From assembly GCF_003334355.1 (NCBI RefSeq), contig NZ_QOWP01000003.1: DNA of 64,000 nucleotides. The stretch is one strand, 5' to 3'. The position numbers and the translations under genes were made by a program. Source of the DNA: Escherichia coli. Lineage in GTDB: Bacteria; Pseudomonadota; Gammaproteobacteria; Enterobacterales; Enterobacteriaceae. Shown here piece after piece: positions 38,853-44,022 of this stretch. The notes under the pieces were generated by a model that was given only the letters and a program-made list of their open reading frames with translations, was not told the DNA's origin and did no database searches. Position 1 is the first letter of the stretch. Each line of letters begins with the position of its first letter.

Positions 38853-40268
38853 TTATTCGTCGTCGTACTGCGGCCCCGCATAGTTGTCGAAGCGCGACCA
38901 TTGACCGTTAAAGGTCAGGCGTACCGTCCCGATTGGGCCGTTACGTTGTTTACCGATAATAATTTCCGCGATGCCTTTTAAATCACTGTTTTCGTGATAC
39001 ACCTCATCACGATAGATAAACATGATCAAGTCCGCATCCTGCTCGATAGAGCCAGATTCACGCAGGTCGGAGTTGACCGGGCGTTTGTCGGCACGTTGTT
39101 CCAGAGAACGGTTCAACTGGGACAGCGCCACCACCGGCACGTTCAGTTCTTTCGCCAGTGCTTTCAGCGAGCGAGAGATTTCTGCAATTTCCAGCGTACG
39201 GTTATCGGAAAGCGCCGGTACGCGCATCAGTTGCAGGTAGTCGATCATGATAAGCCCGATGCCGCCGTGTTCACGGGCAATACGGCGTGCGCGGGAACGC
39301 ACTTCCGTTGGCGTCAGGCCGGAGGAGTCATCGATATAGATATTGCGTTTTTCGAGCAAAATACCCATGGTGCCGGAAATGCGCGCCCAGTCTTCATCAT
39401 CGAGCTGCCCGGTACGGATTTTAGTCTGGTCAACGCGCGACAGCGACGCCAGAGAACGCATCATAATCTGTTCTGAAGGCATCTCCAGCGAGAAGATAAG
39501 TACTGGTTTATCCTGCAACATCGCCGCGTTTTCGACGAGGTTCATCGCAAATGTTGTTTTACCCATCGACGGACGCGCGGCGACGATGATCAAATCCGAC
39601 GGCTGCAAGCCAGCGGTTTTTTTGTTGAGATCGTCATAACCGGTGTTTACTCCGGTAACGCCATCGTGTGGCTGCTGAAACAACTGCTCAATACGCGCCA
39701 CGGTTGCGTCGAGCACATCGGCGATGTTCTTCGGCCCTTCGTCTTTGTTTGCACGACTTTCGGCAATTTTAAAGACGCGGGATTCAGCAAGGTCCAGCAG
39801 ATCTTCGCTGGTACGCCCCTGCGGATCAAAACCGGCTTCAGCAATCTCATTCGCAACCGAGATCATCTCACGGACAACGGCACGTTCACGCACGATGTCA
39901 GCATAAGCACTGATGTTCGCCGCACTTGGCGTATTTTTTGACAGCTCTGCCAGATAAGCAAAACCACCGACGCTATCGAGTTGCCCCTGGCGTTCCAGCG
40001 ATTCCGCAAGAGTAATTAGATCGATAGGGCTACCGCTTTCCTGCAAACGCGCCATTTCAGTAAAGATATGACGGTGTGGGCGGGTGTAAAAATCGTCTGC
40101 TACCACACGCTCGGCTACATCATCCCAGCGTTCGTTATCTAGCATTAAACCGCCCAACACCGACTGCTCCGCTTCGATCGAGTGCGGAGGCACTTTCAGC
40201 CCGGCAACTTGTGGATCGCGTTCGCGGGGTTCAGCCTGCTGTTTGTTGAAGGGTTTATTTCCTGCCAT
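38853..40268 (-). CDS. dnaB: Replicative DNA helicase DnaB, 471 aa
   Basis: Walker A GARPSMGKT, RecA-like fold; full length. Confidence 0.97.
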   Translation of the reverse strand: MAGNKPFNKQQAEPRERDPQVAGLKVPPHSIEAEQSVLGGLMLDNERWDDVAERVVADDFYTRPHRHIFTEMARLQESGSPIDLITLAESLERQGQLDSVGGFAYLAELSKNTPSAANISAYADIVRERAVVREMISVANEIAEAGFDPQGRTSEDLLDLAESRVFKIAESRANKDEGPKNIADVLDATVARIEQLFQQPHDGVTGVNTGYDDLNKKTAGLQPSDLIIVAARPSMGKTTFAMNLVENAAMLQDKPVLIFSLEMPSEQIMMRSLASLSRVDQTKIRTGQLDDEDWARISGTMGILLEKRNIYIDDSSGLTPTEVRSRARRIAREHGGIGLIMIDYLQLMRVPALSDNRTLEIAEISRSLKALAKELNVPVVALSQLNRSLEQRADKRPVNSDLRESGSIEQDADLIMFIYRDEVYHENSDLKGIAEIIIGKQRNGPIGTVRLTFNGQWSRFDNYAGPQYDDE

Positions 40269-40350
40269 AGTGAATGGAGTTACCGAGATAAAGAATGGGT
40301 CGAAACTTTACCATATGAAGCAGACCCTGACGATACGTTCTGGAGGACAC

Positions 40351-41334
40351 ATGGCAACACGAATTGAATTTCACAAGCACGGTGGCCCGGAAGTACTTCA
40401 AGCCGTAGAGTTCACTCCTGCCGATCCGGCGGAGAATGAAATCCAGGTCGAAAATAAAGCCATCGGCATCAATTTTATCGACACATATATCCGCAGCGGC
40501 CTTTACCCGCCGCCATCGCTACCCAGCGGATTAGGCACCGAAGCAGCAGGCATCGTGAGTAAAGTCGGCAGTGGTGTAAAGCATATTAAGGCAGGCGATC
40601 GTGTAGTCTATGCGCAGTCGGCGTTAGGCGCTTACAGCTCTGTGCATAACATTATTGCGGATAAAGCGGCGATTCTGCCTGCGGCAATTTCTTTTGAGCA
40701 AGCTGCGGCATCCTTCCTGAAAGGCTTAACGGTTTATTATCTGCTGCGCAAAACCTATGAAATTAAACCCGATGAGCAGTTCCTGTTCCACGCAGCAGCT
40801 GGCGGCGTTGGCTTGATTGCCTGCCAGTGGGCAAAAGCCCTGGGCGCGAAACTTATCGGCACCGTAGGAACCGCGCAAAAAGCGCAGAGCGCGCTAAAAG
40901 CGGGCGCGTGGCAGGTTATTAACTATCGTGAAGAGAATCTGGTCGAGCGGTTAAAAGAGATCACCGGCGGTAAGAAAGTGCGCGTGGTGTACGATTCCGT
41001 GGGCAGAGACACCTGGGAACGGTCGCTGGATTGCCTGCAACGCCGCGGCTTAATGGTGAGTTTTGGCAACTCATCAGGTGCGGTTACCGGTGTGAACTTA
41101 GGCATTCTCAATCAGAAAGGCTCGTTGTATGTGACACGCCCTTCCCTGCAAGGCTATATCACCACGCGGGAGGAATTAACCGAGGCCAGTAATGAACTGT
41201 TCTCTTTGATTGCCAGCGGTGTGATTAAGGTCGATGTCGCCGAGCAGCAGAAATATCCGCTGAAGGATGCGCAGCGTGCGCATGAAATTCTGGAAAGCCG
41301 GGCAACGCAAGGTTCCAGCCTGTTGATTCCATAA
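40351..41334 (+). CDS. qorA: NADPH:quinone oxidoreductase (zeta-crystallin family), 327 aa
   Basis: ATG at 40351 (MATRIEFHKHGGPEVLQ...); ORF-track start is upstream; GxGxxG NADPH motif AAAGGVG. Confidence 0.92.
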   Translation: MATRIEFHKHGGPEVLQAVEFTPADPAENEIQVENKAIGINFIDTYIRSGLYPPPSLPSGLGTEAAGIVSKVGSGVKHIKAGDRVVYAQSALGAYSSVHNIIADKAAILPAAISFEQAAASFLKGLTVYYLLRKTYEIKPDEQFLFHAAAGGVGLIACQWAKALGAKLIGTVGTAQKAQSALKAGAWQVINYREENLVERLKEITGGKKVRVVYDSVGRDTWERSLDCLQRRGLMVSFGNSSGAVTGVNLGILNQKGSLYVTRPSLQGYITTREELTEASNELFSLIASGVIKVDVAEQQKYPLKDAQRAHEILESRATQGSSLLIP

Positions 41335-41342
41335 AAGAAATA

Positions 41343-41372
41343 GGGCTTCCACCTGGGAAGCCCTTTCTTTTT
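41343..41372 (+). terminator. Rho-independent terminator of qorA (GGGCTTCC/GGAAGCCC then TTTCTTTTT)
   Basis: 8-bp stem 41343-41350/41356-41363 and T-run. Confidence 0.8.
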
Positions 41373-41499
41373 ATAGTTCGGCTGTATGTAGGGTACAGCA
41401 CGATGAATCTGTTAGAGGCGCAATAGTGACAGATTTGATTATCAATTCCTATTTTGTTCTAAGGATAAAACCTTAGGTTGTGATCATCCGCACAATCCC

Positions 41500-41742
41500 T
41501 TAGTAACGCCAGCGGTCATAACGCTGATATTTCGGCACTTTTGGTGCTTTAATCGCCTTAATAACCCACACCACCGCAATCGCCAGTAGTAACCACGGCA
41601 GCAACTTAATCATCAATGCCAGCATACCGCCGAGGAACATAATGGCCGTCGCCACAACCAGCGCGGCGATAATGCCCAGCAACGAAACGCCGGTGACCAT
41701 CAGCATGACAAAAAAGCCAATCACAAAAAGTAGTTCCAGCAT
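41500..41742 (-). CDS. pspG: Phage-shock protein G (80 aa, membrane)
   Basis: ATG at 41742 (MLELLFVIGFFVMLMV...); ORF track extends upstream through the promoter. Confidence 0.88.
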   Translation of the reverse strand: MLELLFVIGFFVMLMVTGVSLLGIIAALVVATAIMFLGGMLALMIKLLPWLLLAIAVVWVIKAIKAPKVPKYQRYDRWRY

Positions 41743-41770
41743 GATGCACTCCCAAATATGAAATCTCTTG

Positions 41771-41793
41771 CTGGCATTACAAGAATCATGCCA
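41771..41793 (-). promoter_or_regulatory. Candidate sigma-54 promoter of pspG (minus strand TGGCATGATTCTTGTAATGCCAG)
   Basis: GG-N10-GT at -24/-12 spacing about 30 nt upstream of pspG ATG; -12 element is GT rather than consensus GC. Confidence 0.45.
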
Positions 41794-41875
41794 AAAATAA
41801 TCTATTGATTTAACAGCAAAACGCCCCGCGACGGTGCGCAGGGCGTGGTGAATTTGACTATTTTTTGGTGAAAAG

Positions 41876-42913
41876 TTAACGCTTATCCGCCACCAGTTTG
41901 AGCGCGTGTTCCAGCACATTAATGTCTGCACCCGCTTTATGGGCATTTTCACTTAAATAACGCCGCCACTGCCGCGCGCCAGGAATACCCTGGAACAAGC
42001 CCAACATATGCCGGGTAATATGACCGAGATACGTCCCCTGGCTGAGTTCACGCTCAATGTACGGATACATGGCGCGCACTACCGCCACCGGATCGGCATC
42101 GATATCCGAGGAACCAAAGATCTCCCGGTCTACCGCCGCCAGAATACCCGGATTCTGATACGCCTCGCGCCCGACCATCACGCCATCCATATGTTGCAGG
42201 TGTGCTTTGGCCTCTTCCAGCGACTTGATACCACCGTTAATCGACATTGTCAGATGCGGAAAGTCACGCTTCAGTTGATACACACGCGGATAATCGAGCG
42301 GCGGGATCTCACGGTTTTCTTTCGGACTTAACCCCGAAAGCCAGGCTTTACGTGCATGGATGATGAACATCTCACACTCGCCTTTGCCGGAAACGGTGTT
42401 GATGAAATCGCAGAGAAATTCATAGCTGTCCTGGTCGTCGATGCCAATACGCGTTTTCACCGTCACCGGAATCGACACCACATCGCGCATCGCTTTCACG
42501 CAGTCGGCAACCAGCTGCGCATTACCCATCAGACACGCACCAAACATGCCGTTCTGCACCCGGTCAGACGGGCAGCCGACATTCAGGTTGATCTCATCAT
42601 ATCCACGCGCTTCTGCCAGCTTCGCACACTGTGCCAGCGCCGCCGGATCGCTACCGCCGAGTTGCAACGCTACCGGATGTTCTTCTTCACTGTACGCCAG
42701 GTAATCACCTTTACCGTGAATAATCGCCCCTGTGGTCACCATTTCGGTATACAGCAACGTATTGCGGGAAAGCAGACGCAAGAAATAGCGGCAATGTCTG
42801 TCCGTCCAGTCGAGCATTGGTGCAACGCTAAACCGACCACTCCAGTGAACGTCAGTTTTTTCAGGCATTGCGCTGGTTTGGTTGATTTTTTGCATTTCAG
42901 AATTACCGTGCAT
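41876..42913 (-). CDS. dusA: tRNA-dihydrouridine(20/20a) synthase DusA, 345 aa
   Basis: ATG at 42913 (ORF track starts at TTG 42919); FMN-binding Dus fold motifs. Confidence 0.9.
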
Positions 42914-43205
42914 TTTCAAATGTAGAGATTATTTTATCGATATATCATGGGGTTATGTTATTCAGCATCACTGTTCAGGAGGCTCAATAACGGGGTACTA
43001 TACCATAACAACAGGAAGCGCCTGTCTCATTGCAAAAGAAAATTGAGATCCTCTCAAGGCATGAAGCTCTCACGAAGTGATGGAAATAATCTTATTAGCC
43101 GTTAGCTTTGTTAAGGCCAATGATAAACAATCCAGGTTCGACGATAAATAAAAATCACACATTAAACTCCGGTGATATCTCTCCCTGCTAATAGCACTGA
43201 TAGAG

Positions 43206-43238
43206 AAAAAAAGAACCCAATAAGCATTGGGTTCTTTT
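43206..43238 (-). terminator. Terminator hairpin after yjbM (AGAACCCAAT/ATTGGGTTCT), A/T runs on both sides, possibly bidirectional
   Basis: 10-bp perfect stem with 4-nt loop; U-run on minus strand follows the yjbM stop. Confidence 0.75.
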
Positions 43239-43275
43239 ATGTAATGCCTTCCATACCATCGAAGAACTTCACATA

Positions 43276-44022
43276 TTATTTCTCCGATTTAACCCCGAAT
43301 AAATCATAAATTAATTTAGAAGTGTCTGTATATATTTTAATCTTTTCCTTTGAGTTTGGGTCAAACGACTTAGCAAAGTCAATTAATTTCGGTGCAGCAT
43401 CTCGCATTTTGCTTAAAATATCAGGGGCGAGCTTTCCTTCATTCACCAGATGTGACATCTTATCCAGATAGCCATCAAAATTCATTTCTCCCCCATCTGC
43501 CAGACGCTTCATCTCTCCCAGGTACTTCTTCATATCACGTTGAGATAACTCTTCAAACTGAGCTGTCAGATAGTTCTCATTATCATCATTAATATTCACT
43601 TTTTCTGCTCCTGCTAAATCTGTGTAGGCACTAGAGTATGAAAGTGAAATCAACAGCGAAGCGAATAATTTTAAGCTGTTGTCATCATATTCCTGACATG
43701 CATTAACAAACGTTAAAAAACCAGAACCTATTGCTTGCAAATGTATATTCGCTAAAGGTTCATTATCTTTAGATTCCTCATAAAAAAGCTGAACCGTGGA
43801 GGGAAGGCCATTCTTGGTTTCTACATCAAAAGTATATCGTTCTATGGGCGTTGCATCTTTATTATCCTCAGGATTACATATACTATTAATCGCAAAATGA
43901 AAAATAGCCCGATCAACAACTGATGCAATAAATTCACGATCGTTTAATTCCTCATCAGTGCAATCTCCAATATACTTATTAACCCACTCTTTGAGATTAG
44001 TTATTTGCTCAATTAAAAACAC
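43276..44022 (-). CDS. yjbM: Uncharacterised protein (248 aa from GTG start; true start uncertain), low-GC islet
   Basis: ORF only; no recognised domain; start overlaps 3' end of yjbL by 10 nt. Confidence 0.7.

Follow-up and report, generated by a model that had tools for sequence, protein, structure and literature searches.

Upstream of pspG, the Escherichia coli chromosome carries an element with the spacing of a sigma-54 promoter, in which the -12 dinucleotide reads GT in place of the consensus GC. We asked whether this element is the promoter of pspG, and what the departure from the consensus signifies. In the window (the whole stretch of DNA analysed, 64,000 nt), the gene order was dnaB-qorA-pspG-dusA, with dusA followed by pspG on the minus strand, qorA convergent to pspG and dnaB beyond qorA. 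The dusA coding sequence, on the strand common with pspG, occupied 41876..42913, ending in the stop codon TAA at 41878..41876. The pspG coding sequence occupied 41500..41742 (minus strand; 80 amino acids plus stop), as indicated by translation, homologues and the RefSeq annotation pspG. The former name of pspG is yjbO, and its promoter is named pspGp. A Shine–Dalgarno sequence, GGGAG (41749..41753, minus strand), was read 6 nt 5' of the pspG ATG, and GGGAG or GGAG was present 5' of the ATG in most species compared.

The locus was ubiquitous in the species: a 601-nt query around the promoter matched 5426 of 5426 complete E. coli genomes, and dusA and pspG were annotated on all genomes among the matches listed. 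Over 2.5 kb around the site, the window differed from MG1655 by 18 substitutions and represented a non-K-12 E. coli chromosome. Two differences lay in the 145 nt between the dusA stop and the pspG ATG, and neither fell in the core promoter, a half-site or the IHF site described below; the core promoter sequence was the same in the window and MG1655. dusA is a recognised integration hotspot, and in E. coli strain 720632 (NZ_CP025842.1) a tyrosine-integrase prophage was inserted adjoining the dusA 5' end. No prophage insertion at dusA was found in the window, where the upstream 20 kb was ordinary backbone (dinF, plsB, lamB, malF). On the other side of pspG, the small RNA PspH is annotated in MG1655 just 3' of the gene, corresponding to approximately 41333-41443 (minus strand) in the window, with its end at the bidirectional pspG/qorA terminator (41342-41364). 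Melamed et al. 2016 (PMC5145812) describe PspH as an sRNA from the 3'-UTR region, with Spf as the RNA that it sponges, and consider a promoter of its own possible. When 40000-44000 was scanned against Rfam with a permissive threshold, sub-threshold matches fell at the pspG/qorA terminator only and none at the promoter.

On the minus strand, positions 41793..41771 read TGGCATGATTCTTGTAATGCCAG (23 nt), and 28 nt separated this string from the pspG ATG (41742..41740), in agreement with the distance of about 30 nt given in a first-pass annotation of this DNA. The core promoter was assigned to the 17-mer TTGGCATGATTCTTGTA (41778..41794, minus strand) on the basis of sequence, identity to a ChIP-seq motif, matrix score and conservation. 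The TGGCA block (41793..41789) held the GG of the -24 element (-25/-24; 41792/41791), and the GT at -13/-12 (41780/41779) followed after exactly 10 nt. The GG-N10 spacing, which the same annotation had judged to fit a sigma-54 promoter, was thus exact, and it was the same in 80 of 80 species. The expected GC at -13/-12 was replaced by GT; GC is a consensus feature and not an obligatory one. The GT was not considered disqualifying, because C is missing from 4 of 42 intergenic E. coli sites confirmed by ChIP and because occupancy has been published for this very site. Counting from the -12 position, transcription would start at a G (41767, minus strand) and yield a 25-nt leader; this predicted start equals the 'motif centre + 19' and agrees with the 'distance 25' given for pspG (PMC4591121 Table 1). 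The remainder of the 23-mer, ATGCCAG (41771..41777, minus strand), and TGGCAT make up an inverted repeat of 6 bp that we attribute to chance. An alternative -12 element at the GC of ATGCC (41775/41774) was rejected, as it would need a spacing of 15 nt and its GC was unconserved.

The pattern TGGCAYG-N4-TTGY occurred once in the 64-kb window; shuffled windows had a mean of 0.28 matches, and 26 of 100 contained at least one. A position-specific weight matrix (PSSM) was built from 40 intergenic-sense E. coli sigma-54 ChIP-seq motifs (Bonocora et al. 2015), excluding pspA and pspG. With both strands considered, the pspG site scored highest of all positions in the window (16.4 bits; training median 15.8), a value also attained in 6 of 30 shuffled windows. 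By sequence statistics, the site was weakly distinguished and not significant at the window level. The second-best match, GTGGCATAAAAGATGCA at 5463-5479 (plus strand), was the fdhF promoter, which was part of the training set. It corresponds to ChIP-seq site OS41 (Bonocora 2015) and is a genuine sigma-54 promoter inside the window, with the predicted start approximately 41 nt from the start codon (ATG at about 5531; MKKVVTVCPY). The next five matches (3776-3792, 33106-33122, 10436-10452, 22751-22767 and 14167-14183) were absent from the published ChIP-seq tables and were taken as chance.

Published data placed sigma-54 at this site. In E. coli, ChIP-seq peak OS40 has the motif TTGGCATGATTCTTGTA, the gene pspG and a distance of 25, with a fold-above-threshold score (FAT) of 15 (Bonocora 2015, PMC4591121 Table 1). 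Its flag 'C' denotes a promoter experimentally confirmed in EcoCyc, and overexpression of sigma-54 increased pspG expression (PMC4591121). ChIP-chip in Salmonella recovered pspG with TGGCATGATTTTTGTAAG at 39-fold enrichment, and ChIP-seq in Yersinia pseudotuberculosis recovered pspG with TTGGCACGTTTCTTGTAA (PMC3844500, PMC7657599). Genomic SELEX with reconstituted holoenzyme containing purified RpoN gave an in-vitro peak in the dusA-pspG spacer (PMC8743547). Counted against a sigma-54 promoter was the response to a promiscuous activator in Salmonella, in which pspG rose 1.4-fold only (PMC3844500). Both pspA and pspG have upstream activating sequences (UASs) to which PspF binds; a single UAS serves pspG, whose induction is approximately 20-fold (Mehta et al. 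2013, PMC3709507). Induction of pspG by PspF under secretin or membrane stress and repression via PspA are likewise described (PMC3709507, PMC2763126 and PMC3041696, citing Lloyd et al. 2004). For the dependence of pspG on PspF and IHF, we rely on such secondary citations. The Lloyd et al. 2004 study reportedly found that pspG depends on sigma-54, PspF and IHF and is under negative control by PspA.

Conservation was examined with one genome per species, in 80 Enterobacteriaceae loci with pspG anchored on the -24 element. Core counts were made over 79 species; the 80th, Citrobacter werkmanii, was kept apart as it has TTGTCATG at -24, still with TTGTA. TGGC (-26..-23), G-13, T-14, T-15 and T-17 were invariant (79/79), followed by A-22 (78/79), A-11 (77/79), and A-10 and T-12 (76/79 each, 96% for T-12). 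From -8 to +19, conservation was 30–58%, save for an A at +2 (87%). TTGTA was kept in 77 of the 80 species, with A at -12 in two and C in one; this sole C (TTGC) belonged to Salmonella enterica subsp. diarizonae. The C/T positions -21 and -16 of this alignment were split 26/53 and 59/20; transitions have thus had time enough to arise at positions that allow them. In S. enterica subsp. arizonae and diarizonae, the pspG leader was approximately 30 nt longer through a GC-rich, palindromic, REP-like insert (GTAGACCCGGTAAGCGC...GCCGGGCA). On a 339-kb contig with the label 'Chryseobacterium sp. 18061' (CACSKA010000007.1), the dusA-pspG locus was enterobacterial, with a promoter region close to that of 'Citrobacter sp. 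18056', an assembly with a similar title and accession prefix, and this looks like contamination or mislabelling.

Because the position of the element, its conservation in 80 species and the published sigma-54 binding agree, the call was decisive where sequence alone was suggestive. We conclude that 41771..41793 is the sigma-54 (RpoN) promoter of pspG, enhancer-dependent and PspF-activated, one of two promoters under PspF in the E. coli phage-shock regulon, with a probability of about 0.96. The first-pass annotation had offered it as a candidate sigma-54 promoter; the sigma-54 assignment stands, and the word candidate can be dropped for a promoter that is already published and characterised (PMC4591121).

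The region between dusA and the core promoter had the organisation of a PspF-regulated promoter. A PspF UAS-like element (41846..41872, minus strand), in which the half-site TTCACCA is directly repeated at a spacing of 20 bp, was recognised by its likeness in sequence. It began 4 nt past the dusA stop, and its half-sites lay at -105..-99 and -85..-79. The window contained one TTCRCYA-N13-TTCRCYA where 0.02 would be expected, although the pattern was picked after the data had been seen. PspF-regulon promoters have a pspA-like UAS about 80–130 bp upstream and an IHF site between UAS and core promoter; here the former was found by similarity and the latter as an exact match to the consensus. The putative IHF site, AATCAATAGATTA (consensus WATCAANNNNTTR), lay at -43..-31 (41798..41810, minus strand); six matches to the IHF consensus were present in the window, with 2.5 expected. 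Its core, AAATCAAT...TTA, was conserved across species. Between the half-sites and the IHF site, a terminator scan placed the dusA intrinsic terminator (41821..41846, minus strand; 10-bp stem, 6-nt loop, then TTTTGCTGTT), with the proximal half-site (TTCACCAC) adjoining the 5' arm of the stem.

The same order ran through the MAFFT consensus of 81 sequences. From the dusA stop, half-sites, dusA terminator, IHF consensus and core promoter followed one another; the 5' part, in which tTtC.CtAAAA..T.GTcAAaTTcaCCAc spans the UAS, read ...AAgCGtTAA. tTtC.CtAAAA..T.GTcAAaTTcaCCAc GCcctGc....gCgGgGcgTTTT, and it continued as ..Tt..aaatCAat...tTA.ttt TGGCAtG.TTcTTGTA. Motifs resembling AAATTCACCA also adjoined pspF in two distant pspF-pspA loci (L084 and L088). 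The position of the dusA terminator between half-sites and IHF site was kept in approximately 80 species with varied stems. In other species, the terminator hairpin took 76 different sequences with a mean MFE of -17.6 kcal/mol, and its T-run at -54..-52 was conserved at 96–99%. A strict automated test for hairpin plus T-tail was passed by only 50 of 80 loci, a shortfall due in part to loss of the tail from the extracted segment. We propose that the dusA terminator, lying within the enhancer-promoter loop, shields pspG from dusA read-through.

Alternative readings of the element were weighed against these observations. A chance resemblance to a sigma-54 promoter, with dusA read-through or a sigma-70 promoter that escaped recognition accounting for pspG transcription, would be consistent with the finding of a comparable match in approximately 20–26% of shuffled 64-kb windows and with the absence of C at -12, which ranks second within the motif for information. 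Yet chance would not keep the key positions invariant in 79–80 species while the flanking intergenic bases drift, nor would it bring sigma-54 to the site by ChIP-seq or ChIP-chip in three genera and by SELEX in vitro. Read-through would have to pass the strong dusA terminator upstream of the promoter, and the minus strand of the dusA-pspG interval showed no sigma-70-like promoter, so that we regard this explanation as extremely improbable. Slightly less remote, and still very unlikely, is that the inverted repeat TGGCAT-N10-ATGCCA serves another regulator, a dimer, as its operator, or acts as a hairpin signal. The arms were perfectly complementary in the window strain and in MG1655, but the downstream arm varied even among Escherichia, where E. 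albertii has ATACCA and further clades have AAGCCA and ATGGCT, and it was unrelated in other genera; AAGCAT was one more variant seen in the comparison, and -8 to -1 were conserved at 33–58%. The upstream arm was simply the -24 element.

The element could also be coding sequence, if a 150-amino-acid open reading frame with a GTG start (41500..41952, minus strand) encoded an N-terminally extended PspG. This frame starts in the 3' end of dusA and stays open across the terminator and the promoter into pspG. Extensions of this kind have been called in public data: one protein of 139 amino acids reads ...YFWHDSCNAS... across the promoter, and another of 105 amino acids does likewise. The first carries the source name 'phage shock protein G', and a third (91 amino acids) is also N-terminally extended through the promoter and leader region. 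Against an extended product, nearly all of the 1029 PspG homologues (Pfam PF09583) were 80 amino acids long and started with MLELLF, the extension overlapped dusA in another frame and crossed the dusA terminator, and the GGGAG ribosome-binding site stood 5' of the ATG at 41742. Between species, the distance from promoter to ATG was 48, 50, 51, 52, 55, 56, 57 ... 85 nt, and since it varied by non-multiples of 3, the upstream frame is not coding. Production of the extended protein can hence be given hardly any weight. The first-pass annotation had called the frame misleading, and rightly: with 80-residue homologues and a frame that is not kept, it is an artefact. Naive longest-ORF calling adds 70 residues to PspG across its own promoter, and such calls stand in public databases.

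The sigma-54 promoter would then operate as follows, where the sequence anatomy and the conservation come from this work, sigma-54 binding and PspF control come from the literature, and we infer what the -12 T does and where exactly transcription starts. RNA polymerase with sigma-54, bound to the -24 GG and the -12 GT, would form a closed complex unable to melt the DNA. PspF would bind the upstream repeat (the two TTCACCA, approximately -79 to -105), and IHF would bend the DNA at its site (-31 to -43), allowing PspF to touch the polymerase. ATP hydrolysis by PspF would remodel sigma-54 at the -12 fork junction and the promoter would open. Transcription would start near G41767 and produce the 25-nt leader with GGGAG, followed by the 80-amino-acid PspG. 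When membrane stress is absent, PspA would keep PspF inactive; secretins and loss of the proton-motive force would release PspF.

The T at -12 cost 4.6 bits in the PSSM (16.4 versus 21.1 bits with C). That GT replaces the consensus GC, as first annotated, is real, but it is no oddity of the pspG site and belongs to a conserved trait of Psp promoters (PMC3041696): GT stands in place of GC in the pspA promoters of almost all species studied (Huvet et al. 2011, PMC3041696). C was lacking at -12 in four of the 42 intergenic-sense ChIP-seq sites in E. coli: pspA, pspG and ygeW had T, and hydN had A. Two of these four, pspA and pspG, are the only PspF targets, and the chance that three random T sites include both PspF targets is 3/861. 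The E. coli pspA promoter reads TTGGCACGCAAATTGTA and its Salmonella counterpart TGGCACGCAAATTGTATT (PMC3844500), both with GT, and in Yersinia the -12 dinucleotide of pspA is GA (PMC7657599). Deep PspA lineages were sampled as well (n = 7; 42–63% identity to E. coli PspA), most of them with a divergent sigma-54 activator gene adjoining. These were mixed: three had GT (E. coli, L085 and L086), one had GA (L088) and three had GC (L084, L090 and L091). GT at -12 was accordingly rejected as a universal hallmark of PspF-dependent promoters, and because deep pspA lineages next to a pspF-like gene are mixed, T is not required for PspF-type activation. The -12 T is an enterobacterial habit that is most strongly fixed in pspG, where its distribution points to maintenance by selection, with counts taken over related species rather than over independent events on a tree.

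The bases at -12 and -11 lie in the early-melted region, which stabilises the closed complex, and are contacted there by sigma-54 (PMC3844500); a non-consensus -12 correlates with weaker repression (the repressive lock) and with activator-bypass transcription (PMC4551910). Most likely, then, the -12 T would tune the repressive contact with sigma-54 Region I and through it basal silence and the ease of activation. The change from C to T may weaken the lock formed by Region I and the -12 fork junction. A weakened lock might permit quick opening by PspF, an activator of low abundance that lacks a sensory domain and shuttles between only two promoters. Alternatively, occupancy by the closed complex could be low enough that PspF is not titrated. 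That selection has kept the -12 T, by either route, as a means of tuning the enterobacterial Psp regulon is a tentative idea, which we consider possible but rather doubtful. No functional test of the psp -12 T was found in the literature covered. Already known were the pspG promoter and GT as a trait of Psp promoters; the near-fixation of T-12 in pspG over 80 species and the mixed state of deeper pspA lineages are a small addition. The narrow question that follows is why enterobacteria keep T and not C at -12 in both psp promoters, and it bears on the balance of silence and inducibility at sigma-54 promoters. In practice, both PspF-dependent promoters would be lost from a sigma-54 scan that demands GC at -12.

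Compared with named systems, the element was the same promoter as pspGp of E. coli (Lloyd et al. 2004, J Biol Chem 279:55707; OS40). Its 17-mer was identical to the published ChIP-seq motif, and nothing of substance differed, the window strain being non-K-12. The E. coli pspA promoter shared the non-consensus -12 (TTGGCACGCAAATTGTA versus TTGGCATGATTCTTGTA in pspG), and both promoters are IHF-assisted and PspF-activated. Upstream of pspA, TTCGCCA-N13-TTCGCTA (-118..-92) had the same 20-bp spacing as the pspG half-sites, with half-sites starting at -118 and -98 in pspA versus -105 and -85 in pspG. Whereas pspA has two UASs and approximately 100-fold induction, pspG has one and approximately 20-fold (PMC3709507). 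The pspA control region is common to pspA and the divergent pspF, whereas the enhancer-promoter interval of pspG contains the dusA terminator. With consensus sigma-54 promoters (YTGGCACG-N4-TTGCW; fdhF, glnAp2, hypA), the pspG promoter shared GG-N10-G, TGGCA, TTG and A-11, and it differed from them in having T in place of C at -12.
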